From an uncultured Acidimicrobiia bacterium (GTDB lineage Bacteria > Actinomycetota > Aquicultoria > CAJVYJ01 > JAUVQD01), in assembly GCA_964196305.1 (NCBI GenBank), contig CAXMSJ010000078.1, positions 1 to 47,676 of the forward strand: a DNA stretch of 47,676 nt, written 5' to 3'. The translations under genes and the position numbers were made by a program. Positions 5,581 through 47,676 of the stretch are shown here, one piece after another. Under the pieces are notes generated by a model. It was not told where the DNA came from. It was given only the letters and a program-made list of their open reading frames with translations, and did no database searches. Numbering within the stretch: position 1 is the first letter of the stretch; the number at the start of each line of letters is the position of its first letter.

Positions 5581-5590
5581 CTTCGCTACC

Positions 5591-6712: not shown

Positions 6713-6721
6713 TGCAACCAG

Positions 6722-7258
6722 CTACTTCGCGACAGTGACCTTCGCATGCCGTATGATCCGGTCTTGAAGGACATAGCCCTTCTCAACCACTCTGACCACT
6801 GTGCCCTCGGCATGTTCATCGCTGTCTTCCTGCATGATTGCCTCATGCCGAGCGGGATCGAAAACCTGACCGACCGGCTCCAAGATCGACAGCCCCTCCT
6901 TGGACAACACTTCAAAAAGTTGCGCGTAAACCAGCTTTAAGCCTTTCTTGAACTCATCTAGTTGCTCGCCCTGGATCTCGTGATCAAGAGCCCGCTCGAA
7001 ATTATCGATAATCGGCAGTAGGCCGACAATCACTCCTTGCGAAGCGAACTTCAGCACCTCGCCCTGCTCGCGAATCATCCGTTTCCGGAAGTTCTCGAAC
7101 TCCGCTTTTAACCTTTGCAGTCTGTCGAGATAATCAGCCGCTTCGGCTCGGGCGACTTCAAGGTCTGTCTTGGCCTTATCAACCTCAGAATCTAGCTCCT
7201 CGGGGGACTCCAGTTCTTGGTCGTTATCAGCTTCTTCAGGTTTCTCTTTATCAGTCAA
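6722..7258 (-). CDS. grpE: nucleotide exchange factor GrpE
   Basis: GrpE core (LQRLKAEFENFRKR...; HEAI...). I place the start at TTG 7258, which lies 6 nt downstream of GGAGGAG (7265-7271) and 20 nt after the dnaK stop. The open frame extends to 7402, but that extension overlaps dnaK by 125 nt. Confidence 0.9.
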   Translation of the reverse strand: MTDKEKPEEADNDQELESPEELDSEVDKAKTDLEVARAEAADYLDRLQRLKAEFENFRKRMIREQGEVLKFASQGVIVGLLPIIDNFERALDHEIQGEQLDEFKKGLKLVYAQLFEVLSKEGLSILEPVGQVFDPARHEAIMQEDSDEHAEGTVVRVVEKGYVLQDRIIRHAKVTVAK

Positions 7259-7277
7259 CGGCTTCTCCTCCGCACGC

Positions 7278-9116
7278 TTACTGCGCTTCTTCCTCGTCAA
7301 CAACCTCTGCGTCGATGACTTCCCCGTCCTGGACGTCTTCCGCGCTTTCCTGTCCCTCTTTCGCCCCAGCCTCTTGGGCCTCCTGGGCCTCCTGATAGAC
7401 AATCTCAGACAGCTTATTTGAGACTTCTGTCAGTTTCTCCGTCGACGATTTGATTTTTTCAACATCTTCACCCTTGAGGGCCTCTTTGGCCTCATTCAAA
7501 GCCTCATCGATATTGCCGTGATCTTCTTCGCTTACTTTATCGCCCAGATCAGTAAGTGTCTTCTCGGTGGAATAAATCAGACTATCGGCTGCATTCCGCG
7601 CTTCGGCGGCTTCCTTGCGCTTGGAATCCTCTTCCGCGTGCGATTCAGCTTCTTCGACCATCCGATTGATCTCATCGCCATCGAGAGTTGTGCTCGCCGT
7701 AATGGTTATCTTCTGCTCTTGACCCGTCCCTAAATCTTTAGCGGAGACGTTAACAATGCCGTTGGCATCGATATCAAAGGCCACCTCGACCTGCGGGGTA
7801 CCCCTGGGGGCCGACGCTATGCCGATCAAGTGGAAGCGTCCCAGCGTCTTGTTGTACGTGGCCATCTCGCGCTCGCCCTGCAATACATGGACCTCGACCT
7901 GTGTCTGGCTGTCCTCGGCCGTGGTAAATATCTCGCTGCGCTTCGTCGGGATTGTAGTGTTCCGCTCGATCAGCTTGGTGAAAACACCACCCTTGGTCTC
8001 AATACCAAGAGACAGCGGCGTCACATCGAGCAACAAGATGTCTTTGATTTCGCCCACCAGGACTCCCGCCTGGACCGCCGCACCGACAGAGACAACTTCA
8101 TCGGGATTGACGCCCTTGTGGGGGTCTTTGCCAGTGATCGTTTTGACCATCTCGGTCACAGCCGGCATACGCGTCGAGCCACCCACTAAAATGACATGGT
8201 CTAAGTCTTGACCACTAACCCCTGCATCCTTCATGGCGCGTTCGACCGGGCCACGGCAATTTTCAAGTAGATCGGCGGTCATCTTCTGGAACTCAGAACG
8301 CGACAATGACATCTCGAGGTGTTTTGGGCCATTCTGATCGGCGGTCACGAACGGCAGATTGACCGACGCTTCGAGAGTGCTGGACAGCTCTACCTTGGCT
8401 TTCTCGGCCGCCTCTTTGAGACGCTGCAGGGCCATCTTGTCCTCTCGGAGGTCGATACCATTCTTGGCCTTGAAATCTTCCGCCATCCAGTCTATAACCC
8501 GCTGGTCGAAATCGTCCCCACCCAGATGATTGTTGCCGCTGGTCGCTTTGACCTCAAATACCCCGTCGCCGATCTCTAGAACGGAGACATCGAACGTGCC
8601 ACCGCCCAGATCAAAGACAAGGATTGTCTGATCGTGCTCTTTGTCTAACCCATAAGCTAACGCTGCGGCAGTCGGCTCATTGATAATGCGTAAGACCTCC
8701 AGGCCGGCTATCTTCCCGGCGTCCTTGGTTGCCTGGCGCTGCTGGTCTTCAAAGTAGGCGGGGACAGTGATCACCGCTTGGGTGATCGTCTCGCCCAGAT
8801 AGGCTTCCGCGTCCCGCTTCAGCTTTTGCAGCGTCTTAGCGGAAATCTCCTGAGGGGTGTATTCCTTGTCGTCTATCTTTACCTTGTGTTCCGTGCCCAT
8901 CTCGCGCTTGATGGAAGAAATCGTCCGATCTGGATTAGTGATCCCCTGTCTCTTCGCCACCTCACCGACAAGTACCTCGCCGGTCTTGGAGAACGCCACA
9001 ACCGACGGGGTCACCCGACTACCTTCGGCGTTGGGGATAACTGTTGGCTCCCCACCTTCGAGAACCGCTACCGCCGAGTTGGTGGTACCGAGGTCGATAC
9101 CTAAAGCTTTTGCCAT
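7278..9116 (-). CDS. dnaK: chaperone DnaK (Hsp70)
   Basis: 612 aa. [17 protein letters not shown] and the other Hsp70 signatures. AAGGAG Shine-Dalgarno upstream. Confidence 0.98.
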
Positions 9117-28002: not shown

Positions 28003-28367
28003 AATCAATTTTCGCCGGCGCCGCATTCAAGCTGTTGATCGCGACGGCGCTCTTGATCATCGTGATAAACGATGCCGGGAGCATCTTGTCCACCCGCTAT
28101 GCCCTGCAAGAAAAAGCCCGCGAGATAGCCAAAACCGCCGACGACTACTATGCGATATCCAGGTCTGAGTCCAGGGCCCGCACCGAAGCGGAAACCAAAG
28201 CTACAGAGCTTGGGGCGATTCTGACAGAGTTTGATATTCTCAACCGGCGGTGGGTGAATCTGACGATTGAAGTTCCCAATCGCGCCACTTGGATAGCCCA
28301 CCGGTTTACTGCTATCCAGCCTTATCTTGGGGCTCAATTAGAATATTCGAGAGATATGCACCAGTAA
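27999..28367 (+). CDS. hypothetical small membrane-anchored protein
   Basis: GTGA start/stop overlap with the upstream gene. GAGGGGA Shine-Dalgarno. One N-terminal TM helix. Confidence 0.65.
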   Translation: MKSIFAGAAFKLLIATALLIIVINDAGSILSTRYALQEKAREIAKTADDYYAISRSESRARTEAETKATELGAILTEFDILNRRWVNLTIEVPNRATWIAHRFTAIQPYLGAQLEYSRDMHQ

Positions 28368-28369
28368 AT

Positions 28370-29455
28370 ATGAATAGAATCATAGTCATAGACACAAACG
28401 TACTGCTCACAGACCCATATGCTCTATTCGCCTATGCTGATGCGGAAATTATTGTGGCGCAAACAGTCCTGGCGGAACTCGACAAGATCAAGATGGGCCG
28501 GAGTGACTATGAGGTCAGATTCCGCGGCCGTGAAGTTTCTCGAACACTTTTCGACCTGTCGCAATACGGCTCTTTGCTCGAGGGGATCGAGCTGGATAAT
28601 GGAGCTAAGGTCCGGGTCGCCCAGCACGACCCAAATAACTTTCCGCCAACGCTCAACCAGAAGAACGGCGATGACCGGATACTAGGAATCGCTTGGCGAC
28701 TGCATGAAGAAGACGGATCGTTGCCGGTCACTCTGATCACTAACGATCTCAATATGCTCTTGAAAGCACAATCGCTCGGAATCGAAGTCCAGCGCCACGA
28801 GCAAGAATACCACCGGAGCCGCTGGAACCGTCTTTTTGCCCCACTCAAGAAACGCCGGTTTTCACTATCTTGGATACTAGTGCCGCTGGTCTTGATCGGT
28901 CTATTCATTTCGCTTTGGCTTCTAGATGTTCCCAGCCCGATCAGCCCGACCACCACAGCCACCACGTCGATCCCGGGCACCACGTCATTCACCCTGCAAG
29001 AAGCCCAGTTGATGGACGTACTCAAGAAGAATGACCAAAGTTACGCTGACTGGTTTCAGCTAGGCCAGCTCTACCTGGACTGGGCAGAACAGCTACAAAG
29101 CGAGACGGATTTTGAAGCCGCCCGCAACAAGCGACTGGCCGCCGTCGATACGTTCAAACACACTTTACAAATACAGCCCGACCATAGCGCCGCCAAGACC
29201 AGTCTGGGCACGGCCTACTTTTTCCTTGGAAACTTCGAAGAGGCCATTAGCCAGTATGTGCAATCGATCAATCAAAATCCCAATTATTCTCTGGCCCATT
29301 TCAACCTGGCATTCGTCCTTTTCAACCAGCGTGACTACAATGGCGCCGCTCAATATTTCCACGCGTACTTAGAGCGGGAGCCGTCAGGACCCAGAAGCGA
29401 CTTTGCCCGCGAGCGGTTAAGCGACATCGACGCCCTTGAGCGTCAGGACACATAG
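28370..29455 (+). CDS. PIN-domain (PhoH/YlaK-N-terminal type) - TM - TPR repeat protein
   Basis: IVIDTNVLLTDP...DDRILGIA...ITNDLNMLLKAQSLGI (PIN acidic residues), TM helix SWILVPLVLIGLFISLWLL, then three or more TPR repeats. ATG 28370 lies 2 nt after the upstream stop; the ORF track starts at 28289. Confidence 0.8.
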   Translation: MNRIIVIDTNVLLTDPYALFAYADAEIIVAQTVLAELDKIKMGRSDYEVRFRGREVSRTLFDLSQYGSLLEGIELDNGAKVRVAQHDPNNFPPTLNQKNGDDRILGIAWRLHEEDGSLPVTLITNDLNMLLKAQSLGIEVQRHEQEYHRSRWNRLFAPLKKRRFSLSWILVPLVLIGLFISLWLLDVPSPISPTTTATTSIPGTTSFTLQEAQLMDVLKKNDQSYADWFQLGQLYLDWAEQLQSETDFEAARNKRLAAVDTFKHTLQIQPDHSAAKTSLGTAYFFLGNFEEAISQYVQSINQNPNYSLAHFNLAFVLFNQRDYNGAAQYFHAYLEREPSGPRSDFARERLSDIDALERQDT

Positions 29456-32161: not shown

Positions 32162-32908
32162 TTAGACCAACCTGGATAGCTCAAAGTAGCCTAGAGCCGT
32201 GGCCGCCAAAATAAGAACCAGCCCGAATAAGTGAGCCAGAGACTCGTTCTTCAAGCGGATAGCCGCCCGCGCCCCCAGATAAGTGCCGGGAACGGCACCG
32301 ATGATCAACAACATAGCCAGGCCTAAATCGACATTACCCAGACTGTAGTGAACGAGCGCCGCCGGAACAGTAATTGCGCCGACGACGGAGATAGAAGTAC
32401 CAAGGGCAGTCTTCATGTCAAGGCCCAGCCACAGGCTGAGGAAAGGGACCAGCATGAAACCTCCTCCAAGGCCCAGGACTCCGGAAACCACGCCAATCGC
32501 TGCGCCAACCACTGCCAGCCACCGCCGGCTAATATCCTTCTCCGCGACCTCCCTGGCTGCTCCTTTTCCGACCACGAAGCGCACGCCAAGCACTAGAATT
32601 ATTCCAGCGGTCATCAGCAAGATCAAGTTGCCCCCGACCAACGGGGTCAAAAGCGCGCCAATGACCGAGCCAACGATACCGGCCGGTGCCAAGATACGCA
32701 CTCGCGCCCACGAAACATATCCGCGCCGACCGTAGGAGACCGCGCCGACCAGTGATGCCGGGATATTGACGAGCATCGGCGTCCCGACAACAATCAGAGC
32801 CGGCTCTCCGAGAATCATCCTAACCGCCGGCTTGGTAATCAATCCACCCCCGAGCCCGAAGTGGCCGGAGAGAAACCCCGAAGCAAGTCCGATCAAGGCC
32901 TCAAGCAT
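32162..32908 (-). CDS. TauE/SafE-family anion exporter
   Basis: Eight TM helices and duplicated GxGGG motifs. I prefer ATG 32908 (MLEALIGLASGFLSG), which overlaps the upstream stop by 8 nt (ATGCTTGA). Confidence 0.85.
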   Translation of the reverse strand: MLEALIGLASGFLSGHFGLGGGLITKPAVRMILGEPALIVVGTPMLVNIPASLVGAVSYGRRGYVSWARVRILAPAGIVGSVIGALLTPLVGGNLILLMTAGIILVLGVRFVVGKGAAREVAEKDISRRWLAVVGAAIGVVSGVLGLGGGFMLVPFLSLWLGLDMKTALGTSISVVGAITVPAALVHYSLGNVDLGLAMLLIIGAVPGTYLGARAAIRLKNESLAHLFGLVLILAATALGYFELSRLV

Positions 32909-34460
32909 CGGCAGCCACCGCTCGTTCTGCCTCTGCCAAGGCCTCCGCCCCAGAGGCCTGACCATTGAGCTCCACAGCCGCCGCCCTGATCAGAAGACGT
33001 ACTCCCACGTCTTCGGCTAACCAGAAAACAGTCGCTGCTACTTTCTCGCGGAGCCTCTCAAAGACCGCGGTCGCCGACCGCTCGCCCGTTTCAGGCAAGA
33101 GCAAGGCAAAAGTGTGCGGGCCACTTAACGCCAGAGTATCACTCTCCCGAGCCTGACCGGCCAATACCTGTGTTAAAAGGACAATGGCCCTATCGGAAGC
33201 GCGGCGCCCATAGCGAGTAATGATTTCGTCGATCTCCGCGATCCGGAAGGTCGCCAGCGTCAACTTCCTTGAATAGCGGACTGCCCGTTTCATCTCCTGA
33301 TCCAGCGCCCGCTCCAACCCGACTCTGTTCAGCAGCCCGGTCAAGACATCAGCGTCTGCTGTTGGTTGGAACTGAGTGAGGGCAGACCGTAGGCGCTCGT
33401 TCTCTAGGGGCAGGCAGGCCGACCAATCAGAATACCCCCGGACTACAGCCGCCGCCTGCTCCTGACAAGTCTGGTAGCCACAGACCATACAATCGAGACG
33501 TGATTCACGCTCATTCAGACCAGCCCCCAAGAGCTGTTCCTCCAATTGACCCGAGGAAACCTCCCTGACGTGCGGCGGACGCACAGAGAAGCCGATTGCC
33601 TGAGCCAGATGACTCAAGGGCCGAAGCTGCTCATCGGAAAGACGGGGGCCGGTCCCGTTAAGGGCGGTCGCGCATTGACCGCACCCGTGAATGTCATGGA
33701 AAATCGCCTCGGAGTCTGCACCACTGCTCTGCGGCAGCTGATCGAGGAGCAATTGGGGATCAAAAGGAGCCGACTCTTGAGCCAACATCCCGGTATCAAT
33801 CTTAATACCCCGCTCCTCCAGCATCAGCAATAATTGGGACATCGAGATGACAGCCACCGGTGCCTGATCGTCTCGGTCGACAACGGTCTTAGCCCCCAGG
33901 CACGAGGTGATCAGAACCACGTTCGGGCGCTTCGGATAGACTTCTCTCACGAGCCGGCTCTGAACCTCGGACTCGGTGGCCAACGGCACCAGTGCGTCAA
34001 TCAGGTCTGGTCGAAACTGCTCGACCAAGTTGACCACTACTGGACACGAAGATCTGATCAACGGCCCGCTCTCGTGGAGCGCCCGCACTTCCCGGTACTG
34101 AAAATCCAGAAGTTGCCGCGCGGCCGAACCATCCTCAACCGCCAAGAAGCCAAGTGAAGTCAGCGCCTCCTGCCAAACCGTCCAACTCACGCCCGACCAA
34201 GCGGCTCGAACCTCCGGAGTCAAAACAGCAACTGCCGCGCCGCCCTCAAGGCATTCGGCTACCACTGCCGATTCATCGGTAGCCAACAGCGCATTCTGGG
34301 TGCAGACCGAGACACAAGCGCCACAAGCAATACAACGATCCATGTCGACCTCAAGGACGTCACTGGTGACCATGATAGCCTTAGGCGAGCAAATGCGAAC
34401 GCAATGTCGGCAACGCCGGCAAGCACTGGTTTGGGTCTGAATAATCTGTGAGGCGGCCAT
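32901..34460 (-). CDS. Fe-S sensor protein: 2x[4Fe-4S] ferredoxin + [FeFe]-hydrogenase-large-subunit-like domain + CX2CX4CX17C Fe-S domain + degenerate GGDEF domain
   Basis: CRRCRHCVRICSP and CIACGACVSVC; SSCPVVV, ITSCLGAKT, HGCGQC; DCMVCGYQTCQ...ACLP. The GGDEF fold (LTGLLNRVGLERAL...) keeps RESD (RxxD), but its active site reads SGPHTF (33108-33125). I prefer ATG 34460 (MAASQ) to the start at 34532. Confidence 0.85.
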   Translation of the reverse strand: MAASQIIQTQTSACRRCRHCVRICSPKAIMVTSDVLEVDMDRCIACGACVSVCTQNALLATDESAVVAECLEGGAAVAVLTPEVRAAWSGVSWTVWQEALTSLGFLAVEDGSAARQLLDFQYREVRALHESGPLIRSSCPVVVNLVEQFRPDLIDALVPLATESEVQSRLVREVYPKRPNVVLITSCLGAKTVVDRDDQAPVAVISMSQLLLMLEERGIKIDTGMLAQESAPFDPQLLLDQLPQSSGADSEAIFHDIHGCGQCATALNGTGPRLSDEQLRPLSHLAQAIGFSVRPPHVREVSSGQLEEQLLGAGLNERESRLDCMVCGYQTCQEQAAAVVRGYSDWSACLPLENERLRSALTQFQPTADADVLTGLLNRVGLERALDQEMKRAVRYSRKLTLATFRIAEIDEIITRYGRRASDRAIVLLTQVLAGQARESDTLALSGPHTFALLLPETGERSATAVFERLREKVAATVFWLAEDVGVRLLIRAAAVELNGQASGAEALAEAERAVAADA

Positions 34461-34474
34461 CAAGTTAAAGTTGT

Positions 34475-34490
34475 TTTTGGATATCCAAAA
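34475..34490. promoter_or_regulatory. perfect 16-bp palindrome TTTTGGATATCCAAAA, candidate operator
   Basis: Read directly. It lies 15 nt upstream of the preferred start of the Fe-S sensor gene, in the divergent intergenic region shared with the STAS gene. Confidence 0.35.
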
Positions 34491-34641
34491 TAAGTATAGA
34501 GGACGGGGAGAGCAAAACCAAGGCAGGCTCACTCATGAAAAACCGCCTGATAGTTTGACTTGCGGCTGCTCGCACTGTACAGTTGAATACTGCCAGGAGC
34601 TCATCAAATGGGTCTTTGCGAAACAGATTATGGAGGCGTGA

Positions 34642-36421: not shown

Positions 36422-37441
36422 CTAGGGCAGCCGTCCCCGGACGACTAATGCCTCCGCGATCTGCACTGCGTTCAGGGCCGCTCCCTTGCGCAGATTGTCT
36501 GCAACTACCCAAATATTCAGGCCATTAGCAACCGAGTCGTCCCGACGAATCCGGCCCACATACGTCTCGTCGCTCCCCGCAGCGGCCAAGGGTGTTGGAT
36601 AGACAGACTGCTCCGGGTTATCCAGTAGAGTAACTCCAGGGGCAGCTTCCAGCGCCTGCCTGGCCTCCGCCACATCGACCTCCCGCTCAAACTCGATATT
36701 GATCGATTCGCTGTGACCACTGACGATCGGCACGCGGACTGTTGTAGCAGTAATCGGCAGATCCGGCAGACCCATAATCTTCCGGGTCTCGGCGATCATC
36801 TTGATCTCTTCTTTTGAATATCCGGATTCGAGAAACACATCTATATGGGGAAAAAGATTGAAGGCGATCGGTTGAGCATAGACTTGCGCCTGTGGCTCCC
36901 GGTTCGCCAAGATATCGCGAGTCTGCTCCAGTAATTCATCAATGGCCTCGCGACCAGTACCGGAGACAGCCTGATAGGTCGAAACGACGACCCGCTTCAT
37001 GGTCCACAAATCGTGCAGTGGCTTGAGCGCCATGACCATTTGGATTGTCGAACAGTTGGGGTTGGCAATAATACGGTCGTGACCATCGAGAGCGCCAGGA
37101 TTGACTTCTGGAACCACCAGCGGCACCTTGGGGTCCATCCGCCAAGCACTGCTGTTGTCGATAACAACTGCCCCCGCATCTCGCGCGACTGGGGCGTAGT
37201 CGAGGCTGACAGCCCCACCGGCCGAAAACAAAGCAATGTCTATCCCCCTAAAAGAATCGCTGACCAGAGCCTGGACTTCCCGCTGGCCACCCTGCCAATC
37301 ACGCCTCTGACCGACAGAACGAGCGGACGCCAACAATGTCAGCTCGCTCACTGGAAACCGGCGCTCCGCTAGAATCGAGCGCATCTCCTCGCCGACCAGA
37401 CCGGTGGCCCCGACAATAGCGACTCTGTATTCGCGACTCAC
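36422..37441 (-). CDS. asd: aspartate-semialdehyde dehydrogenase
   Basis: VAIVGATGLVG Rossmann start and active-site NPNCSTI. I prefer GTG 37441, which gives 339 aa and lies 4 nt after the lysC stop. Confidence 0.95.
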   Translation of the reverse strand: MSREYRVAIVGATGLVGEEMRSILAERRFPVSELTLLASARSVGQRRDWQGGQREVQALVSDSFRGIDIALFSAGGAVSLDYAPVARDAGAVVIDNSSAWRMDPKVPLVVPEVNPGALDGHDRIIANPNCSTIQMVMALKPLHDLWTMKRVVVSTYQAVSGTGREAIDELLEQTRDILANREPQAQVYAQPIAFNLFPHIDVFLESGYSKEEIKMIAETRKIMGLPDLPITATTVRVPIVSGHSESINIEFEREVDVAEARQALEAAPGVTLLDNPEQSVYPTPLAAAGSDETYVGRIRRDDSVANGLNIWVVADNLRKGAALNAVQIAEALVVRGRLP

Positions 37442-38739: not shown

Positions 38740-39672
38740 TTACTCTACGCCGCAACGCGACATTAAACGCGTCCATTGGTCATCGATATCCTGCTGGACT
38801 TCAGCCAGCAATCCCTCGTTGCCAGGCGCAAAAAGGTGCTTATAACGACCCTGGGGCTTGAGCCAATCTTCGAGCGGCTTTGGCTCGCGTACCTTGACGG
38901 ACAGCTTCCACTCCCCGTCCTCAATTTCATATAGCGGCCAGAACCGCGTCTGCACCCCGGCCTTAGCCATCTTGACCGTCATGTCTGACGGGAACCGCCA
39001 GCCTCTGGGACAAGGGCTCAGAATATTCAAGAATGCCGGACCATCCGCGGCAAAAGCTTTAGTTGCTTTAGCGTTTAGGTCTTTCCAGTTGCTAATCGAG
39101 GCCTGTGCCACATAGGGAATTCCATGAGCGGCCACGATAGCCGTTAAGTCTTTCCTTCTTTGCGGCTTGCCCGACTGAACCTTGCCAACCGGCGTAGTGG
39201 TCGTCCAAGCTCCTTTGGGCGTAGCGCTGGATCGCTGAATGCCGGTGTTCATATAGGCCCCGTTGTCGAGACAGACATAGACCATTTTGTGGCCCCGCTC
39301 GAGAGCCCCGCTCAATGACTGCAGTCCGATATCATACGTGGCCCCGTCGCCGCCAAAGGCGACAAAGCGCATCTCGTCCTTGACCTTACCCCGGCGGCGC
39401 AGCGCATTGTAGGCCGCCTCGACGCCACTCATCGTCGCCGCAGCGTTCTCGAAAGCGTTGTGGATATAGCTGCAATTCCAGGCTGTATATGGATAGACGC
39501 TGGTCGAAACTTCCAGACAACCCGTCGCGCAACACACAGCCACCGGAGCGTCTGCCGCCATTAACACCTGACGGACCCCGATCGAGTGTCCGCAGCCCGC
39601 GCAGAGTCGATGTCCGCCGGTAAGATAGTCTTCCTTGTGAGTCAGTTCTCGTAAACTTACCATCTTTGTCAC
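38740..39672 (-). CDS. porB: 2-oxoacid:ferredoxin oxidoreductase, beta (TPP-binding) subunit
   Basis: CAGCGH Cys cluster and GDG...N TPP-binding motif (FGGDGATYDIG...LDNGAYMNTG). Confidence 0.92.
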   Translation of the reverse strand: MTKMVSLRELTHKEDYLTGGHRLCAGCGHSIGVRQVLMAADAPVAVCCATGCLEVSTSVYPYTAWNCSYIHNAFENAAATMSGVEAAYNALRRRGKVKDEMRFVAFGGDGATYDIGLQSLSGALERGHKMVYVCLDNGAYMNTGIQRSSATPKGAWTTTTPVGKVQSGKPQRRKDLTAIVAAHGIPYVAQASISNWKDLNAKATKAFAADGPAFLNILSPCPRGWRFPSDMTVKMAKAGVQTRFWPLYEIEDGEWKLSVKVREPKPLEDWLKPQGRYKHLFAPGNEGLLAEVQQDIDDQWTRLMSRCGVE

Positions 39673-40857
39673 CTACTCCTTCAACCCAAGATATCTGATG
39701 ACCGAACCAACCGGTTCGCCCTCAGCTATCTGGCTCAGATCGTTATAAACTTGCTCAATATTGGCCAGGGAAACATCTCGACCACCAAGACCATAAATAT
39801 AGTTGAGCACCGGTGTCCGCGGCTCATGATCATACAGTGCCGAGCGGACCTCCTGAAAAAGCGGGGCGCCGATCTGCCCCGGCGACAGCGAGCGGTCCAT
39901 CGCCGCCACCGCTTTGACGCCTGCCAATTCTTTGGCAATCGCCTCGGCCGGAAATGGTCGAAAACTCCGCAATTTTAAGAGACCGGCACGGACTCCTGCC
40001 TCTCGCAGCTTGTCCACGACGACTCTGGTGGTTCCAGCGGTCGAACCAAGCACGATAATCGCTACTTCGGCATCATCGAGCTTGTAAGCCTCGTAGAGGC
40101 CGTACTCCCGACCGGATACTTGCCCATACTCCTGGCCGATCTCCTCAATAACCGACTGACTGCCAAGCATAGCCAGCTCCTGGTCGCGTCGGAACTCAAA
40201 GAAGAAACCATGGAGACCATCGAATGGTCCGACGGTAATGGGATTCTCTGGATCCAGCATGGTGATCGGGGCATCGAACTCGCCGACAAATTTTGCTGCA
40301 TCGTCGTCATCTAACATATCAAGGCGGTCGATGGCGTGACTGATGATAAAACCATCGAGACAGACCATGACGGGCAGCTTCACCCGATGATCTTCGGCGA
40401 TCCGGACAGCCAGCAATGTTGTATCGTATGCCTCCTGGGCATTCTCGCAAAACAATTGGATCCAGCCGGAATCCCTGGCCCCCATAGAGTCCTGGTGGTC
40501 GCAGTGGATATTGATAGGCCCAGACAAAGTTCTGTTGACGTTATGCATGATGATGGGAAGCCGGTACGATGAGGCAATATATAGCTCCTCCCACATCAAG
40601 GCCAGCCCTTGAGAAGCGGTCGCGGTGATTACCCTGGAACCCGCTGCCGAAGCACCGATGCAGGCGCTAAGAGCGCTGTGCTCACTCTCAACGGTCACGT
40701 ACTCCGTATTAACCAGCCCATCGGCAACATAGGTGGAGAACTCCTCAACAATCGTCGTCTGCGGCGTAATCGGATAGGCCGCGACGACATCCGGATCTGC
40801 CTGCCGCATTGCCTGGGCGCAGGCCACGTTTCCAGTCAAAGCTACTGTCTTGGCCAT
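39673..40857 (-). CDS. porA: 2-oxoacid:ferredoxin oxidoreductase, alpha subunit
   Basis: 394 aa. N-terminal pyrimidine-binding POR domain (YPITPQT...ESEHSA). Confidence 0.93.
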   Translation of the reverse strand: MAKTVALTGNVACAQAMRQADPDVVAAYPITPQTTIVEEFSTYVADGLVNTEYVTVESEHSALSACIGASAAGSRVITATASQGLALMWEELYIASSYRLPIIMHNVNRTLSGPINIHCDHQDSMGARDSGWIQLFCENAQEAYDTTLLAVRIAEDHRVKLPVMVCLDGFIISHAIDRLDMLDDDDAAKFVGEFDAPITMLDPENPITVGPFDGLHGFFFEFRRDQELAMLGSQSVIEEIGQEYGQVSGREYGLYEAYKLDDAEVAIIVLGSTAGTTRVVVDKLREAGVRAGLLKLRSFRPFPAEAIAKELAGVKAVAAMDRSLSPGQIGAPLFQEVRSALYDHEPRTPVLNYIYGLGGRDVSLANIEQVYNDLSQIAEGEPVGSVIRYLGLKE

Positions 40858-41159
40858 TATTTCTCCTCCTCTTTCATTTCAATAGCATCCACAGGGCACT
40901 CTTCGGCACAAATGCCACAGCCCTTGCAATGGTCGTAGTCGATCCCCAGCATCTTTTCATCCTCGACCTCGATCGAAGTGTCGGGACAGAATACCCAGCA
41001 GATCATGCAGTGGGTACAACGGTCTTCGAACCACTCTGGTTTCTCGGAACGCCATCCACCCGTATTGTACTGATGAGCCGTGCCCCCCTCGGGGATCGTC
41101 ACCCCAGCTGGATGGTCGCCGACCTTCCACTCTTTGATATTGCTAAAATCCCAGCTCAC
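40857..41159 (-). CDS. porD: 2-oxoacid:ferredoxin oxidoreductase, delta (2x[4Fe-4S]) subunit
   Basis: CTHCMICWVFCPD and CKGCGICAEECP. Confidence 0.9.
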   Translation of the reverse strand: MSWDFSNIKEWKVGDHPAGVTIPEGGTAHQYNTGGWRSEKPEWFEDRCTHCMICWVFCPDTSIEVEDEKMLGIDYDHCKGCGICAEECPVDAIEMKEEEK

Positions 41160-41734
41160 TCCGATCGCACCTCCGCATACGCCCGCTTAAGCGCCTCGAC
41201 ATTTCCCTCGATGATCTCCTCACTAAACTTTTTGCCAAATGAGGATCTAATATGATCGCCAACTTTTTCCACGTCCATGATACGGGTCGCCTTGAGCATC
41301 GCCCCGAGCATCGGCGTATTTGGAATCGCCCGGCCGATACAATCTACGGCTATCCTACTAGCATCTACCGTGAATATCTTTTGTTTTTCGATCTGGCGGG
41401 CCTCCCGAACTTCGGCCGGCGACATCTCTGTGTTAATGACCAGCACGCCATCGTCCGGCATGCCGTGGATTACATCTACGACCGCCAACAGTGTCGGATC
41501 CAAGACCGCAACGATCCCGGGGTTGGTAACGTTGCAGTGGATGTGGATAGGCTCCGGGCTGATTCGCGTAAACGCTTGAATCGGGGCGCCCATCCGCTCC
41601 GGCCCGTACTCCGGCGAAGCCTGAAAATACTGGTCGAGCTTGAGAGCGGCTTCCGCCATCAGCTTTGCGGCCGTAACGGCACCCTGACCTCCCCGTCCGT
41701 GCCATCTGATTTCAGTCAGATTCTCCATGATCAC
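41156..41734 (-). CDS. porG: 2-oxoacid:ferredoxin oxidoreductase, gamma subunit
   Basis: EIRWHGRGGQG start typical of the POR gamma domain. GAGGTG Shine-Dalgarno. 4-nt overlaps through the operon. Confidence 0.9.
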   Translation of the reverse strand: MIMENLTEIRWHGRGGQGAVTAAKLMAEAALKLDQYFQASPEYGPERMGAPIQAFTRISPEPIHIHCNVTNPGIVAVLDPTLLAVVDVIHGMPDDGVLVINTEMSPAEVREARQIEKQKIFTVDASRIAVDCIGRAIPNTPMLGAMLKATRIMDVEKVGDHIRSSFGKKFSEEIIEGNVEALKRAYAEVRSE

Positions 41735-42010
41735 CTCATATTCTTCTAGCGCCCATATCGATCCTTGATGTTTTTTTCACAAAAAGAACCGTACTTGAAC
41801 AAGCTACAACCTGGGCTGACTCTGAATCATTACTCAGCGCGCTTAAGCGCGTGAAAACCTTTGTACTATATAGTTTCCCTATTTTCAAGCAAAGTGGAAG
41901 CAGCTAATAATTATGTCACTCTTAACAACTTGAGAGCAAATTGAGGTATATGGGATACTAAGCTGCTCCACTTCTATGACAACTTTGTCGCGAGAGAAGC
42001 CAAGAGGATA

Positions 42011-45000
42011 ATGGCAGAACATAATACTATTTGCGGAATCTGCCCTGCCGGTTGCTGGGTGCGCGTCGAGCTCGAAAATGGCCGACTCACTTCCGTCAAA
42101 GCCCAACCGGACCACCCACTGGGGATGATCTGCCGGCTCGGAGAAAGATCGCCGGAGATCGTCTATTCCTCAGACCGCCTGAAACAACCGCAAAAGCGAG
42201 TCGGACCTAAGGGCACATTCAACTTCCGCCCGATCAGCTGGGATGAAGCTTACGAAGAGATCGTCGCCAACCTGGAGAAGACAAAGACTGAGTTTGGTCC
42301 CGAAGCGACTGCCATCTATACCGGGCGAGGCAGCTTTGATCTGGCCATGTGTGATATTTTTCAACCTCAGGACACCGCTGTCTCTTCGGCTTCCAGCGTC
42401 CTCTTTCCATTTGGATCGCCCAATACTTTTGGCGTTGGGGCTCTCTGCTATGTCTCGTTCGCCATGATCGCACCCCACGTCACTATGGGCGGCATGCTGA
42501 TCAACATGGATTCCGAGATAGAGGACGCCGAATTGATCGTTATCTGGGGAACTAATCCGGCGACGGACTGCCCACCTCTGGCTCACCACCAGATACTGGC
42601 GGCACAGAAGAATGGGGCCGAAGTCGTCGTCATCGACCCCAGACAGACCGCCACCGCCAAGGCCACTGGAGCGGACTGGATCCCGATACGCCCCGGGACA
42701 GACGGCGCCCTGGCCCTGAGCATGATCCAGGTCCTAATCGAGGAAGATCTCGTGGACGAGGACTTCATTGACGACTGGACCGTCGGATTCGATGACCTAA
42801 AGCAGTATGTTCAACATTTCACCCCAGAGGCAGCGGCGGAGATCACCACGGTACCGGCTGATACGATCCGACGACTGGCGCGACGCATCCACGGCGCGCG
42901 CGGAGCGGCTCCGGTCATGTATAGCGGTCTTGAGTACTCCGACGGCGGCGTCCAAGCCATCCGGGCCACCCAGATTCTTTGGGCACTCGCAGGCCAGCTC
43001 GATGTTCCGGGTGGCCGGGTTTTCAAAATGGACAGCAACTCCTTTCCTATCAATAAGAGCGGCTTGATACCAAACCCTGATGTCTCCAAAGCGATCGGTC
43101 GTGACCGCTTCCCGGTATACAGCCAATACCGCGGCGAATCCCATGCTATCTCCCTGCCGGAAGCCGTCCTGCAAGGGCGACCTTACCCGATCAAAAGCCT
43201 GATCGTGGTAGGCGGGTCCATCGTCACTGCCTGGCCGGAACCGGACACCTGGCGGCGGACGCTCGGCGAGTTGGACTTCTTGGTCACGATCGACCGACAA
43301 CTGACGGCCGATGCCGCCTATGCCGATATCGTTTTGCCGGCCACTACCGGCTATGAGAACACCTCGTATATGGTGTACGGCCCGCTATTTAGGATCCGGG
43401 AGAAGCTGCTTGAGCCACAGGGAGAAGCACGCAATGACTTTTTCATCCTGGCTGAACTAGCCAAGCGTCTTGGCTATGGCGAGCTCTATCCGCAAAGTGA
43501 GGATGAGCTGCTTGACTACGTGCTGTCGCAGTCCGGGGAGACAGCGGCGTCGGTGCGAGCGGCCGGGGGAACAGCCCAAGTGCCGACGGTCATGATGCAA
43601 TACAAAAAATGGGAAAAGGGGCTGCTGCGCACCGACGGACAGCCTGGTTTTAATACGCCCTCCGGCAAGTTTGAGATTGCCTCGACTACCCTGGAAGAAC
43701 ATGGCTATGATGCCCTACCTGTCTATACCGAGCCAAAAGAAGGACCGCTGACCCGGTCCGACTTGGCCGAAACGTTTCCGCTCGTCTTCAATTCTGGAGC
43801 ACGAGTGACGACTGACTTCCGCTCCCAGCACCATGGGGTGCCCAGCTTAGCCGCCGAGTCCCCCGAACCGCTGGTGACAATGAACACCAAGGATGCCCGC
43901 AAGCGAGGCATCAAGCCCGGCGAGGAGGTCATCGTCGCCACCGAACGGGGGCGGGCTCGTTTTCGCGCCTATGTGACCGACGACATCATTGAAGGTTCGG
44001 TCGATGCCAATATGGGTGGCGGCGGACCGATCGGACCGCAGGCCTGGCAAGAATGTAATGTCAATGTCCTCACAGACTTGGGTCGATACGACCCGATATC
44101 AGGCTTTCCTGTCTATAAAGCACTCTTGTGCGAGGTGGAGCCGGTAGCTAGCCGAGTACCTAGTACCGTGGAAGAGATTTTAGCCGATGATCAAGAAGGA
44201 CCGGCCCGTGAACAACCAGCTCAATTCCCCGCCAAAGTAGCTGAGCCGGCTCAGGAGCGCCGCCTAGTCTATTTCGACAACAACGCCACCACCGCCATCG
44301 ATCCAACGGTCTTCACGGCCATGGAGCCGTTTCTCAAAAATGACTACGGTAATCCGTCGAGCATCCATGGATTGGGCTCGCAAGCGCGAGAGGCAGTCGA
44401 GTCAGCCCGGAGAGTTTTGGCCAGGTCTCTCAACACCACGGCCCGCCGAATCATTTTTACGGGTAGCGGCTCGGAAGCTGATAATCTTGCGATCAAAGGC
44501 GTGGCCCGGGCGCTGGCTGAGCAAGGACGCCATATAATTACTTCTGCCGTTGAGCATCCAGCAGTTCTGGCCGCCTGCCGCGCTCTGGAGGCTGACGGGT
44601 TCACAGTCACTTATCTGCCCGTAACAGACGAAGGCCTGGTCGAGCCGGCCAAATTAGAGGCGGCCTTTAGGCCCGAGACGATCCTGGTCTCAATCATGAC
44701 CGCCAACAATGAAACCGGCACTTTACAGCCGATCGCCACTCTGGCGGCGATGGCTAAAGCCCGCCGCGTACTCTTTCATACCGATGCCGTCCAGGGATTC
44801 GGAAAAATCACCCTCGATGTCGAACAGCTGGGAGTCGATCTATTGTCGATATCAGCCCATAAGATACACGGCCCCAAGGGGGTCGGCGCCCTCTACGTCC
44901 GGCGCGGCACACCACTGGCTTCGCTAATCGGCGGCGGAAAACAGGAATCCGGCTTGCGGGCCGGGACAGAAAATGTCTCGGGCATTGTCGGTTTCGGAGC

Positions 45001-45418
45001 CGCCGCCGACCTCGCCTTGCGTCGCCTGCCTGATTGGGACGCTGCCTCCCGACTCCGTGACCGTCTCGAGAACCGGATACTGCCGCTCGTCCCAGGAGCC
45101 AAAATCAACGGCTCAACAGAGCAGCGGCTGCCGAACACCTTGAATCTGACTTTACCAGGGTTTCGCGGAGAGTCTGTTGTCTTCAAGCTTGACCGCCTGG
45201 GTATCGCCCTATCTTCCGGCTCGGCCTGTAAGTCCGGCTCACCAGATCCGTCACACGCCCTGATGGCTCTAGGATTGACAGAAGATGAAGCCCATTGCTC
45301 ATTGCGCTTCTCGACTAGCGTCGATACGACCGAAGAGGAGATCGACTATGTCGCTCAAGCGCTGGAGCGGATGGTCGAGCAAGCGGCCGAATCAGTCAGG
45401 TTCATCCCATGCAGATGA
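42011..45418 (+). CDS. fusion protein: Mo/W-bis(pyranopterin guanine dinucleotide) enzyme (acetylene-hydratase-like) + NifS/IscS-type cysteine desulfurase; candidate metallopterin-dependent ergothioneine synthase
   Basis: Residues 1 to about 712: C8-x2-C11-x3-C15...C41 [4Fe-4S] motif, candidate metal-ligand Cys146 (GALCYVS), and a C-terminal pterin-binding barrel (VTMNTKDARKRGIKPGEEVIV...). Pro/Glu/Ala linker at nt 44147-44260. Residues about 750-1135: VYFDNNATT, PLP Lys951 (SAHKIHGPKG), persulfide Cys1073 (SSGSACKSG). The frame is uninterrupted across the junction. Confidence 0.85.
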   Translation: MAEHNTICGICPAGCWVRVELENGRLTSVKAQPDHPLGMICRLGERSPEIVYSSDRLKQPQKRVGPKGTFNFRPISWDEAYEEIVANLEKTKTEFGPEATAIYTGRGSFDLAMCDIFQPQDTAVSSASSVLFPFGSPNTFGVGALCYVSFAMIAPHVTMGGMLINMDSEIEDAELIVIWGTNPATDCPPLAHHQILAAQKNGAEVVVIDPRQTATAKATGADWIPIRPGTDGALALSMIQVLIEEDLVDEDFIDDWTVGFDDLKQYVQHFTPEAAAEITTVPADTIRRLARRIHGARGAAPVMYSGLEYSDGGVQAIRATQILWALAGQLDVPGGRVFKMDSNSFPINKSGLIPNPDVSKAIGRDRFPVYSQYRGESHAISLPEAVLQGRPYPIKSLIVVGGSIVTAWPEPDTWRRTLGELDFLVTIDRQLTADAAYADIVLPATTGYENTSYMVYGPLFRIREKLLEPQGEARNDFFILAELAKRLGYGELYPQSEDELLDYVLSQSGETAASVRAAGGTAQVPTVMMQYKKWEKGLLRTDGQPGFNTPSGKFEIASTTLEEHGYDALPVYTEPKEGPLTRSDLAETFPLVFNSGARVTTDFRSQHHGVPSLAAESPEPLVTMNTKDARKRGIKPGEEVIVATERGRARFRAYVTDDIIEGSVDANMGGGGPIGPQAWQECNVNVLTDLGRYDPISGFPVYKALLCEVEPVASRVPSTVEEILADDQEGPAREQPAQFPAKVAEPAQERRLVYFDNNATTAIDPTVFTAMEPFLKNDYGNPSSIHGLGSQAREAVESARRVLARSLNTTARRIIFTGSGSEADNLAIKGVARALAEQGRHIITSAVEHPAVLAACRALEADGFTVTYLPVTDEGLVEPAKLEAAFRPETILVSIMTANNETGTLQPIATLAAMAKARRVLFHTDAVQGFGKITLDVEQLGVDLLSISAHKIHGPKGVGALYVRRGTPLASLIGGGKQESGLRAGTENVSGIVGFGAAADLALRRLPDWDAASRLRDRLENRILPLVPGAKINGSTEQRLPNTLNLTLPGFRGESVVFKLDRLGIALSSGSACKSGSPDPSHALMALGLTEDEAHCSLRFSTSVDTTEEEIDYVAQALERMVEQAAESVRFIPCR

Positions 45419-46353
45419 ACGGGAGCCACGCCTTTGCAGCCAGCGTGCTACGCGGACTCAGCCTTGACCCGCGGCGGCTGGAGTGCCGGTATATCTATGA
45501 CGAATTCGGCAGCCGCCTCTTCGAGCAAATCTGCGAACAACCTGAGTACTACCTAACCCGGGCAGAGCGCACCATCCTGCTGGAAGCGGCGGACGAGATC
45601 GCCCGCCTCACGGGGCCGGCCGCCCTGATAGAATTCGGCTCCGGTAATTCTGCCAAAACACGCATATTATTAAACGCCTACGCCGAGCGATACGGTGGCG
45701 TCCGCTATATTCCTGTAGATATCAGCGACTCAATACTAGAGCACGCGGAAGCAGAGCTCGCCACGGCAGCCCCATTGGCCACAGTAGATTCCTTCCATGG
45801 CACTTATGATGATGCCTTCCATCTTTTTGATTCGTTTTCTCCGCTGGTATTCCTCTTCCTGGGGAGCAATGTGGGGAATCTGGATCCGGCAGAAGCAGCC
45901 GCCTTCTGGTCGGAGATCAGCTCCAATCTCTCCGTGGGAGACTTCTGTCTTCTGGGCGTAGACATCACACAAGACTCAGACGCGCTTCATGCCGCCTATA
46001 ATGACGCGGCCGGATACAGCGCTAGGTTCACGAAAAATATCTTCTCCAGAATAAACCGTGAGCTCGGAGCTTCAATAGATATTGCGACTATAGAACACGT
46101 GGCTGCGTTTAGCGCCCCGCGCAATCAAGTGGAGATTTTCGCCAAATTCACTCAAGCGCAACAGATAGATATCGCTCCTTTGGGCCAGAGCGTGTCGATC
46201 GAGGCAAACGCCTTGGTTATGACCGAGATAAGCCGTAAATTCCGGATCGATGAGATCAGGCCCTATCTAGAACACTACCGGCTGGAGACCCGCCATGTCT
46301 TCAGTAATGACGGACAAAACTTCGCCTTGCTTCTCCTGGCCAAGACCGACTAA
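45409..46353 (+). CDS. egtD: L-histidine N-alpha-methyltransferase (EgtD/EanA-type)
   Basis: YIYDEFGSRLFEQICEQPEYYLTRAE, SAM loop EFGSGNSAKT, YIPVDIS, FLGSNVGNL, YNDAAGYSARFTKNIFSRINRELG and TEISRKF all align with EgtD as I remember it. The start overlaps the upstream stop (ATGCAGATGA). Confidence 0.88.
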   Translation: MQMNGSHAFAASVLRGLSLDPRRLECRYIYDEFGSRLFEQICEQPEYYLTRAERTILLEAADEIARLTGPAALIEFGSGNSAKTRILLNAYAERYGGVRYIPVDISDSILEHAEAELATAAPLATVDSFHGTYDDAFHLFDSFSPLVFLFLGSNVGNLDPAEAAAFWSEISSNLSVGDFCLLGVDITQDSDALHAAYNDAAGYSARFTKNIFSRINRELGASIDIATIEHVAAFSAPRNQVEIFAKFTQAQQIDIAPLGQSVSIEANALVMTEISRKFRIDEIRPYLEHYRLETRHVFSNDGQNFALLLLAKTD

Positions 46354-46943
46354 AGATCCCGGCGACCCTCGAGCGCCTTGCCAATGGTCATCTCGTCAGC
46401 ATATTCGATATCGCCGCCAACGGGGATACCGCTGGCAATACGAGTGGTCTTGACTCCCAGCGGCTTAAGCAGCTTTGAAAGATACATCGCCGTCGCCTCA
46501 CCCTCCATGTTGGGGTTGGTGGCGACGATGACTTCTCTAACCGGGGACTCCTTGAGGCGCTCCAGCAACTCGGCTATTTTGAGCTTTTCCGGACCCACCC
46601 CTTCCATCGGCGACACCGCGCCGCCAAGAACATGGTAAAGACCGTGATATTGCCCGGTTCGCTCAATGGCGATAATGTCTTTTGCTTGTTCGACGACACA
46701 GACAATCTCTTGTGAGCGACGGTTATCTACGCAAATATCACAGAGCTCAGCCCCGCTGATGTTAAAACAGCGCCGACATAATTTGATCTGTCTAACACCC
46801 ATAATGGCGTTGGCCAGGGCCCTGGCCTCTTCGGGCTGGTCGAGGATGTGCAGCGCCAACCGCTGAGCGGTTTTAGCGCCAATGCTAGGCAGCTTCTGAA
46901 GCTCAGCGATCAGACTATCGAGTTGTTTAGGATAAACGGACAT
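46350..46943 (-). CDS. recR: recombination protein RecR
   Basis: HhH (LPSIGAKTAQRLA), C4 zinc finger (CRRC...CDIC) and a Toprim domain. Confidence 0.96.
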   Translation of the reverse strand: MSVYPKQLDSLIAELQKLPSIGAKTAQRLALHILDQPEEARALANAIMGVRQIKLCRRCFNISGAELCDICVDNRRSQEIVCVVEQAKDIIAIERTGQYHGLYHVLGGAVSPMEGVGPEKLKIAELLERLKESPVREVIVATNPNMEGEATAMYLSKLLKPLGVKTTRIASGIPVGGDIEYADEMTIGKALEGRRDL

Positions 46944-46969
46944 CGGACTTGGCTATTTCTGGGAGCGGC

Positions 46970-47284
46970 TTAGAGGCCCGGCAGGCCCAGACCGCCCAGA
47001 CCACCGGTGAGCGCGCCCATCTTCTTGGCAGCCGTCTCTTGCGACTGACGTAACGCCTCGTTGACCGCTGCGACCACCATATCTTGAAGCAACTCCACGT
47101 CATCCGGATCAACCGCCTCTGGGTTGATCTCCACCCGCTTTAACTCTTGAGACCCGGTGACTACGGCCTTGATCATCCCGCCTCCGGCTGTAGCCTCGAT
47201 CTCCTGTTCGGCTAGCTCCTCTTGCATGCGCGCCATGTCGGTCTGCATTTTCTGCATCTGCTTCATCATCTTAGCTCGGTTCAC
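46970..47284 (-). CDS. ybaB: YbaB/EbfC nucleoid-associated protein
   Basis: 104 aa. MMKQMQKMQ...GGGMIKAVVTG...VEINPE. Confidence 0.93.
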   Translation of the reverse strand: MNRAKMMKQMQKMQTDMARMQEELAEQEIEATAGGGMIKAVVTGSQELKRVEINPEAVDPDDVELLQDMVVAAVNEALRQSQETAAKKMGALTGGLGGLGLPGL

Positions 47285-47299
47285 GTAGGTATCCCCCTT

Positions 47300-47676
47300 C
47301 TATTCAACAATCTCGGCTCCAAAGCTTTCTTTAAGTAGATCGATCATATCATCTTCGCCGCCGGGGCTAGGCGGAGCAGCCTTCTTGGCCTCGGTGGCCG
47401 GTCGGGTATTCTTCGGCCCCGAAGCGACTATCATGGAAAACGTCACCTTGACCCCCAGGACTTCCACTAGCGCCTCCCGAAACAACCCCGCATTAGGTTC
47501 TTTAGTTATCTCCTGCTGAGCAAAGTTTGATTTGGGCGGAAAGGCCACCACCAACTGACCGTCATCGATCGATTGCGGCTGACCCTCTATCAAGAACGCC
47601 CCGAGCGATAACTTCCTCCGCTTAGTAGCGGCCAATATTTCAGGCCAGGCAAGCTCAATCTCGGCCAGATCGAGTG
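47300..47676 (-). CDS. dnaX: DNA polymerase III gamma/tau subunit, C-terminal part; the gene continues beyond the right window edge
   Basis: The frame stays open to the window edge. Conserved dnaX-ybaB-recR synteny. The C-terminal region resembles tau C-termini (WPEIL...GAFL...). The ORF-track Met at 47635 is internal. Confidence 0.75.
   Translation of the reverse strand, partial: LDLAEIELAWPEILAATKRRKLSLGAFLIEGQPQSIDDGQLVVAFPPKSNFAQQEITKEPNAGLFREALVEVLGVKVTFSMIVASGPKNTRPATEAKKAAPPSPGGEDDMIDLLKESFGAEIVE

Follow-up and report, generated by a model that had tools for sequence, protein, structure and literature searches.

Positions 42011-46353 of the 47,676-nt stretch of DNA analyzed here (the window) very probably hold, on the forward strand, a self-contained and translationally coupled two-gene operon for the oxygen-independent biosynthesis of ergothioneine. 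The first gene is predicted to encode a metallopterin-dependent ergothioneine synthase (MES), and the second an EgtD-type methyltransferase that would supply its substrate, N-alpha-trimethylhistidine (TMH, hercynine). The architecture of the locus, the residues it retains, its place inside the MES clade and its synteny are matters of observation, and its function is predicted from them. An earlier note on this DNA had arrived at the same reading, and had pointed to a third route to ergothioneine characterized from Caldithrix abyssi by Beliaeva and Seebeck in 2022. The paper bears out this description (PMC9516567).

The enzyme described in that paper (Beliaeva & Seebeck, JACS Au 2022), CaMES of C. 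abyssi (UniProt A0A7V4WV16), consists of an acetylene-hydratase-like module with a bis-molybdopterin guanine dinucleotide (bis-MGD) cofactor, joined in one polypeptide to a functional cysteine desulfurase. Its gene is accompanied by one for an EgtD-type methyltransferase. CaMES and three further enzymes, AbMES, EaMES and hvMES, made ergothioneine in E. coli fed with TMH. Residues Cys153, Lys952, Cys1074 and Cys1135 of CaMES are essential, while Cys1097 is conserved but dispensable. Sulfur transfer must stay within one polypeptide, and the isolated C-terminal module is an active cysteine desulfurase that uses cysteine (all PMC9516567).

The sequences of the validated enzymes were read by machine from the supplement of that paper, with some errors (EaMES column 15, hvMES column 951). 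The decisive comparison therefore relies on the true CaMES gene as it stands in the C. abyssi genome (L026); this gene encodes 1136 aa and has all published residues at their published numbers. The wider comparison set consisted of 80 genome loci that carry the MES fusion, from many bacterial phyla and archaea, and of a family alignment (A1) of 20 MES sequences. The closest relatives of the window locus are L081 and L082, and a near-identical strain assembly, L083, comes from Logan (run ERR13301390). Domains were called with Pfam and with NCBIfam equivalog models at curated cutoffs.

The MES gene (42011..45418, +) is an uninterrupted open reading frame (ORF) that encodes a single polypeptide of 1135 aa. 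The earlier note had described it as one ORF of 1135 codons joining two modules, and both the reading frame and the Pfam matches (PF04879, PF00384, PF01568 and PF00266) agree with this description. The amino-terminal part begins with an Fe4S4 domain (42014..42169, +; PF04879, residues 2-53), in which Cys8, Cys11, Cys15 and Cys41 form the motif C8-x2-C11-x3-C15...C41. It continues with a bis-MGD metallopterin module of the DMSO-reductase superfamily (42176..44122, +), which is matched by PF00384 (residues 56-486) and PF01568 (residues 598-704) and contains the predicted Mo or W ligand Cys146 (codon 42446-42448, +). The carboxyterminal part is a class-V cysteine desulfurase module dependent on pyridoxal phosphate (PLP) (44267..45418, +; PF00266, residues 753-1114, E=9e-82). 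It features the PLP-binding Lys951 (44861-44863, +), the persulfide residue Cys1073 (45227-45229, +) and, in a VRFIPCR tail, the C-terminal relay residue Cys1134 (45410-45412, +). Structures of IscS and NFS1 match this module at E ~1e-100. No twin-arginine translocation (Tat) signal is present in the window MES, which is therefore predicted to be cytoplasmic.

Between the Pfam domain boundaries lies a linker of residues 705-752 (44123..44266, +), which contains the linker of about 38 aa (residues 713-750) that had been delimited before. It is rich in Pro, Glu, Ala and Gln, hypervariable, and without consensus in the family alignment. It is also the sole part of the MES gene that does not align at the DNA level with the closest relative, L081, and it is modeled by AlphaFold2 with a predicted local distance difference test score (pLDDT) below 50.

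All nine positions that were functionally probed or found to be conserved in CaMES are present in the window MES and are invariant in the 20-sequence alignment. Cys8, Cys11, Cys15 and Cys41 correspond to Cys14, Cys17, Cys21 and Cys48 of CaMES, and Cys146 to Cys153. In the desulfurase module, Lys951 corresponds to Lys952, Cys1073 to Cys1074, Cys1096 to Cys1097 and Cys1134 to Cys1135. The CX2CX3C...C motif, Cys146, Lys951 and Cys1073, all pointed out in the earlier note, thus align with functional residues of an enzyme of known activity. The amino-terminal cluster cysteines are invariant (20/20 in the family alignment, 79/79 among the locus homologs), and they align with the cluster cysteines of acetylene hydratase. 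Across the loci, conservation is complete for Cys146 (80/80), Lys951 (80/80), Cys1073 (79/79) and Cys1134 (74/74), and nearly so for Cys1096 (75/78).

Chance can be dismissed as the origin of the two-module ORF, as can an artefact at the join. More than 120 protein clusters, at 63-78% identity, and 80 of the 80 genome loci examined share this fusion. The Logan assembly of the near-identical strain (L083) aligns to window positions 41163-47676 with 10 mismatches and 0 gaps (99.85% identity), and contains the same uninterrupted ORF. The GC content is even across the module join and uniform over the window, and the MES-egtD locus is therefore not an island. An exact-sequence look-up of the window MES gave no match, since P0001, the representative of its nominally identical protein cluster, differs from it at two residues. 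Eight differences to L083 fall into the MES gene, six of which are synonymous, while the other two affect the adjacent codons 1102-1103 (45312-45320). There, the window has Thr-Ser, L083 has Ile-Asn, and the family consensus is Leu-Gly (at least 90% conserved). Constraint may be locally relaxed at this site just past the conserved Cys1096, or the site may change fast.

Over residues 3-1135, the window MES is 64.3% identical to true CaMES, the values for the metallopterin and desulfurase modules being 71.3% and 55.8%. The machine-read AbMES, hvMES and EaMES sequences are 55-57% identical to the window MES. In a neighbor-joining tree of 87 MES metallopterin modules, built without bootstraps and rooted on acetylene hydratase as the single outgroup, all 87 modules group in a single tight clade at the end of a very long branch. 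The base of this clade is spanned by the four validated enzymes, and the window sequence lies inside it, in a subclade with sequences from Thermoleophilia and Actinomycetes metagenome-assembled genomes (MAGs). Despite the lack of bootstraps and the single outgroup, the gap between 71% identity to CaMES and 27% to acetylene hydratase leaves little doubt about the placement. The assignment to the third route has therefore held up against the true CaMES sequence, the conserved residues and the validated clade. The amino-terminal module might instead have clustered with formate dehydrogenases or nitrate reductases, a possibility that the earlier note had considered. It groups with MES in the tree, and the models for formate dehydrogenase, Phs, Dms and Nas all score far under their cutoffs for the window MES.

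Two other identities were rejected. A stand-alone NifS or IscS cysteine desulfurase would have about 400 aa, versus 1135 aa with a 700-aa metallopterin module in the window protein, and the equivalog models stay under their cutoffs: NifS model TIGR03402 reaches 486 bits (cutoff 530.75), and the IscS models reach 381-389 bits (cutoffs 548-643; TIGR02006, 381 versus 643). The broad "IscS subfamily" model NF002806 is the only such model that is passed, which explains the misleading name given by annotation pipelines. Mislabeling of the gene had indeed been foreseen in the earlier note, and public records call it either "IscS subfamily cysteine desulfurase" or "cysteine desulfurase NifS". Neither is the protein an acetylene hydratase, which it resembles in fold and cofactors, since it has Pro12 at the position of the catalytic Asp13, and identity is just 27.1%. 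A dedicated MES model exists in neither Pfam nor NCBIfam, and no MES structure is found among the PDB sequences.

The second gene, egtD (45409..46353, +), encodes a predicted L-histidine N-alpha-methyltransferase of 314 aa that depends on S-adenosylmethionine (SAM). The junction sequence, PF10017 (E=1.4e-87; 294 bits versus a cutoff of 23) and the egtD equivalog TIGR03438 confirm what had been read from the ORFs, namely that the MES stop overlaps the start of an EgtD-type protein of this length. The stop codon is TGA at 45416-45418. Two in-frame ATG codons are available for egtD, one at 45409 (10-nt overlap) and one at 45415 (4-nt ATGA overlap, 312 aa). The amino-termini of the closest relatives, in which the gap between MES and egtD is 3-4 nt, fit the ATG at 45415 slightly better.

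The window EgtD aligns without gaps to the structures of M. smegmatis EgtD (E=1.6e-54), so that residues can be mapped directly. The histidine site of the mycobacterial enzyme is made up of Tyr39, Phe47, Tyr56, Asn166, Tyr206, Glu282 and Ser284, together with Thr163 and Thr213 (PMC8593015). Identical residues in the window EgtD are Y30 (Tyr39), F38 (Phe47), Y47 (Tyr56), N157 (Asn166), Y197 (Tyr206), E273 (Glu282) and S275 (Ser284). The earlier note had asked for the histidine-binding residues of EgtD, and they are kept. As every hydrogen-bonding residue of the histidine site is retained, methylation of histidine is the predicted activity. The Glu at the Glu282 position is among the retained residues; Glu282 and Met252 are the sites at which mutation shifts the specificity of EgtD towards tryptophan.

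The pairing of the two genes is a general feature of the family. EgtD adjoins MES on the same strand, upstream or downstream, in 65 of the 80 loci. Of the 15 loci without adjacent EgtD, at least 9 are cut by a contig end, the C. abyssi contig among them. Clustering of the neighboring ORFs revealed no further recurrent partner, be it a transporter, a sulfur carrier or a gene for molybdenum cofactor (Moco) synthesis; the next family is found in just 9 loci. The frequent adjacency of EgtD and the lack of any other recurrent neighbor speak for a genuine two-gene module. A few loci (L015, L034, L055, L071, L077 and also L074) have several kb of flanking sequence with no EgtD within reach. Such genomes may have egtD at another site, or their MES may operate on trimethylhistidine or ergothioneine taken up from outside.

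A promoter-like element (41930..41959, +), located about 50 nt before the MES start, consists of TTGAGA, an 18-nt spacer and a TG-extended GATACT. A promoter consensus scan of a 500-nt region returned 4 sites versus 0.5 expected. The element, in the form TTGAGA(G/A)CAAA...ATATGGGATACTA(A/G)G, is kept upstream of MES in L081 and L082, where the flanking intergenic DNA has diverged, and it is probably the promoter of the MES-egtD operon. For the 276-nt upstream region, Rfam reveals no riboswitch or other RNA element, and no match reaches the gathering threshold anywhere in the window, neither to Moco nor to SAM riboswitches. A sub-threshold match to the Fibrobacter-1 RNA (19.7 bits versus a gathering threshold of 77.9) was dismissed as spurious. 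The intergenic region between porG and MES also contains a perfect 14-bp palindrome, CGCGCTTAAGCGCG, at 41838-41851. This palindrome occurs once in the window and in neither L081 nor L082; a local regulator could use it as an operator, or it could be due to chance.

Upstream of MES, in divergent orientation, lies porGDAB (38740-41734), which encodes a four-subunit pyruvate/2-oxoacid:ferredoxin oxidoreductase (POR), in agreement with the divergent pyruvate:ferredoxin oxidoreductase reported in the earlier note. On the other side, the MES-egtD pair is flanked by the convergent genes recR-ybaB-dnaX. A functional link between POR and MES was considered and rejected. The two are adjacent in only 3 of 83 loci, namely in the window and its two closest relatives, which makes the adjacency a case of lineage synteny. 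Between POR and MES, both L081 (6772-7803) and L082 (4833-5879) have a gene with PAS and HD (HD-GYP-like) domains. It has no tblastn match in the window, and thus represents an indel within an otherwise conserved synteny.

Together, our data suggest a model for ergothioneine synthesis by the two proteins. EgtD would use three SAM molecules to convert L-histidine to TMH. The carboxyterminal PLP module of MES would convert L-cysteine to alanine and load the sulfur as persulfide onto Cys1073. Within the same polypeptide, the sulfur would then be relayed via Cys1134 in the flexible tail to the Mo or W center that is ligated by Cys146, and transfer to the metal would generate a metal(VI)-sulfido species. 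Attack of the imidazole C2 of TMH on the sulfido ligand, followed by tautomerization, would release ergothioneine and leave metal(IV), which the next persulfide would re-oxidize. The net reaction would be the conversion of TMH and cysteine to ergothioneine and alanine, without O2 or any external redox partner. The need for neither O2 nor an electron carrier fits a cytoplasmic enzyme with an Fe4S4 cluster that is probably non-redox, as in acetylene hydratase.

Several points weigh against this reading or limit it. For the window protein, we infer activity, identity of the metal and chemistry at the metal center from homology. Even for the validated enzymes, the chemistry at the metal is the tentative proposal of the authors (PMC9516567), and it remains a proposal because MES has never been purified or structurally solved. 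The AlphaFold2 model of the whole fusion, built from the family alignment, has a mean pLDDT of 59.6, and only the desulfurase module is confident. Most of the metallopterin module is below 50, so that fold matches of this module would be meaningless, and for this part the low-confidence model adds nothing to the argument. The egtD equivalog TIGR03438 is passed by just 1 bit (291.9 versus 290.9), and three substrate contacts vary conservatively from the mycobacterial EgtD (T163N; T213S, which keeps the hydroxyl; and M252I). Of these, the Ser and Ile variants are also found in the EgtD partner of the validated AbMES (Fig. S1 of PMC9516567). Genes for the biosynthesis of molybdenum or tungsten cofactors, or for molybdate or tungstate transport, are absent from the 47.7-kb window, and cofactor supply is therefore assumed. 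Finally, no ORF of the window has the domains of EgtB or OvoA (FGE-sulfatase/DinB) or of EanB (rhodanese). The domain scan, which covered the 47.7-kb window, confirms what had been noted before.

Could an enzyme of the same family make another product? EgtD might generate the betaine of another amino acid, and MES might thiolate that substrate or another heterocycle. The EgtD/PF10017 family does include other specificities, such as EasF, the model of which matches the window methyltransferase at 149 bits. The narrow pass of the egtD equivalog and the three altered contacts point in the same direction, and the authors of the 2022 study speculate that related Mo enzymes may sulfurize other heterocycles (PMC9516567). 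However, the hydrogen-bonding residues of the histidine site are all kept, among them the equivalents of Asn166, Tyr56, Tyr206, Ser284 and Glu282, two of the three variants are shared with the EgtD partner of AbMES, and the window MES belongs to a clade bracketed by validated ergothioneine synthases. We therefore regard another product as quite unlikely. Reversal of the reaction is a related idea, in which MES would mainly shuttle sulfur from imported ergothioneine for salvage or exchange. In vivo, sulfur can move in both directions between ergothioneine and TMH at the metallopterin site (PMC9516567), and about six related loci with ample flank have no EgtD next to MES. In the window, in contrast, EgtD is translationally coupled to MES, and the desulfurase module, which is needed in the synthetic direction only, is intact with all relay cysteines. 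A mainly reverse role is thus very unlikely for this locus.

Selenium instead of sulfur chemistry would require the NifS-like domain to act as a selenocysteine lyase and to deliver selenium to the metal center, with selenoneine as the product. Class-V desulfurases are homologous to selenocysteine lyases, the structures of which match the carboxyterminal module at E ~1e-60, and no sequence feature speaks against selenium chemistry. Nevertheless, the module is much closer to IscS, NFS1 and NifS (E ~1e-100), cysteine is the demonstrated sulfur source of CaMES and ergothioneine its demonstrated product (PMC9516567), and no selenium-metabolism genes are found in the window. Some MES members, possibly the window MES among them, may use selenocysteine to make selenoneine; as an account of this locus, we consider the idea highly improbable. 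The low complexity and poor conservation of the linker could raise the suspicion that two separate genes were joined by chimeric assembly or by a frameshift error. An artefact at the junction had also been considered in the earlier note, and its chance is practically negligible: the fusion recurs in all loci and in the many clusters described above, an independent assembly has the same ORF, the GC content does not change over the join, and intramolecular fusion is a functional requirement in CaMES. We consider this explanation as already refuted, and return to oxygen-independent ergothioneine synthesis as the best explanation for the locus.

The remainder of the window consists of housekeeping genes (clpB, hspR, dnaJ, grpE, dnaK, serS, pheA, lon, ddl, asd, aspartokinase), with asd (~36428-37429, -) beside the aspartokinase gene. 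The genes dnaK, grpE (6722-7402), dnaJ and clpB, together with one for a MerR/HspR-type regulator, share a strand (2561-9116, -). Their order, dnaK-grpE-dnaJ-hspR-clpB, is characteristic of Actinomycetota, in line with the actinobacterial neighbors in the MES tree, and the actinobacterial assignment rests on both. ClpB has its nearest relatives at 82% identity, and its matches at about 68% are split over Actinomycetota, Nitrospirota, Anaerolineae and Firmicutes, so that ClpB by itself does not point to one phylum.

Some of the other genes bear on the lifestyle of the host. A protein of 543 aa (32901-34532, -) has ferredoxin-like 4Fe-4S motifs, a region similar to the large subunit of FeFe-hydrogenases, a putative Fe-S domain and a carboxyterminal GGDEF diguanylate cyclase domain, and looks like a redox- or H2-sensing protein of cyclic di-GMP signaling. 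A fragment with a CoA-enzyme-activase-associated DUF2229 domain (1-750, -) runs off the start of the window and is adjoined by a gene for an ApbE flavin transferase (911-1966, +). The POR, the FeFe-hydrogenase-like sensor, a ferredoxin and the CoA-enzyme activase fragment would fit an anaerobe. The earlier suggestion of an anaerobic host is therefore plausible from the context, although the window does not prove it. An unrelated observation concerns a protein of 388 aa (28289-29455, +), in which an N-terminal PIN_4 nuclease domain is fused to C-terminal TPR repeats.

The MES family is present in at least 524 species-representative genomes, which is a lower bound, compared with the 55-80 genomes reported in 2022 (PMC9516567). 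Carriers include anammox Planctomycetota (Scalindua, Kuenenia, Loosdrechtia), Desulfomonilaceae, Gemmatimonadota, Thermoleophilia-like Actinomycetota and archaea. The distribution suggests that the MES route is common in anoxic habitats. As the family is roughly ten times wider than the 2022 count and nearly always comes as a two-gene module, we lean slightly towards the view that ergothioneine is a common thiol in anoxic sediments and bioreactors. If this is true, ergothioneine would be a common low-molecular-weight thiol of these environments and not a rarity, and its role in strict anaerobes would be directly testable in a cultured host. Most carriers are MAGs; a cultured one is Geomonas paludis Red736 (L049, NZ_BLXY01000002.1), which has an MES at 65% identity with EgtD upstream, and which would be a practical organism for the study of native anaerobic ergothioneine production.

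Among the papers searched, there is no primary work that follows up on the 2022 description of MES. Since Pfam and NCBIfam have no dedicated model, the anaerobic synthesis of ergothioneine escapes automated pathway reconstruction. Such a model could start from the residues listed here, together with the motifs CGICPAGC and LCYVS(F/Y)AM and the ...PCR tail. With the window locus, a poorly sampled and probably anaerobic lineage joins the ergothioneine producers, and a well-expressed orthologue of the actinobacterial type with a short linker might be a candidate for structural work.

How does the window MES compare with known systems? The similarity to CaMES is extensive. The two proteins have almost the same length (1135 and 1136 aa) and the same order of Fe4S4 domain, bis-MGD module, linker and class-V desulfurase, the probed residues are kept, the C-terminal heptapeptide VRFIPCR is identical, and the partner is an EgtD-type methyltransferase in both cases. 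The linker sequences, in contrast, are unrelated. C. abyssi belongs to the Calditrichota, whereas the window lineage groups with MAG sequences of Actinomycetota/Thermoleophilia. In the window, MES precedes EgtD with overlapping stop and start codons, while in many other lineages EgtD is located upstream or 20-500 nt apart. CaMES, AbMES, EaMES and hvMES have been shown to be active, whereas the window MES is known from its sequence. The window MES is a further member of the published family, from which it departs solely in the overlapping stop and start and in the host lineage. Our results therefore extend the picture of 2022 and leave it unchanged.

Among solved structures, the best match of the amino-terminal module is acetylene hydratase of Syntrophotalea acetylenica (2e7z; E=1.8e-64, 27.1% identity). 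The published value for CaMES versus acetylene hydratase, 27%, is the same (PMC9516567). Both enzymes are cytoplasmic, or predicted to be so, both have an N-terminal Fe4S4 cluster, the tungsten ligand Cys141 of acetylene hydratase aligns with Cys146 of the window MES, and neither would have net electron transfer with an external partner. Acetylene hydratase differs in its catalytic Asp13 (Pro12 in the window), in the lack of a fused desulfurase, and in catalyzing the hydration of acetylene rather than the formation of a C-S bond. The polysulfide/thiosulfate reductase PsrA (2vpw) scores almost as well with the amino-terminal module (212.9 bits versus 221.5 bits for acetylene hydratase), which makes "acetylene-hydratase-like" a loose label.

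The desulfurase module shares the PLP fold, the Schiff-base lysine (Lys951) and the persulfide-loop cysteine (Cys1073) with IscS, NifS and NFS1. Unlike these proteins, it is fused to a metallopterin enzyme and has an additional conserved relay cysteine in the C-terminal ...PCR tail, and it would send its sulfur intramolecularly to the Mo or W center and not to Fe-S scaffold proteins. The two other routes to ergothioneine, via the O2-dependent sulfoxide synthases EgtB/Egt1 and via the rhodanese EanB, have the same EgtD first step and the same end product, but their C-S bond-forming enzymes are unrelated to MES.

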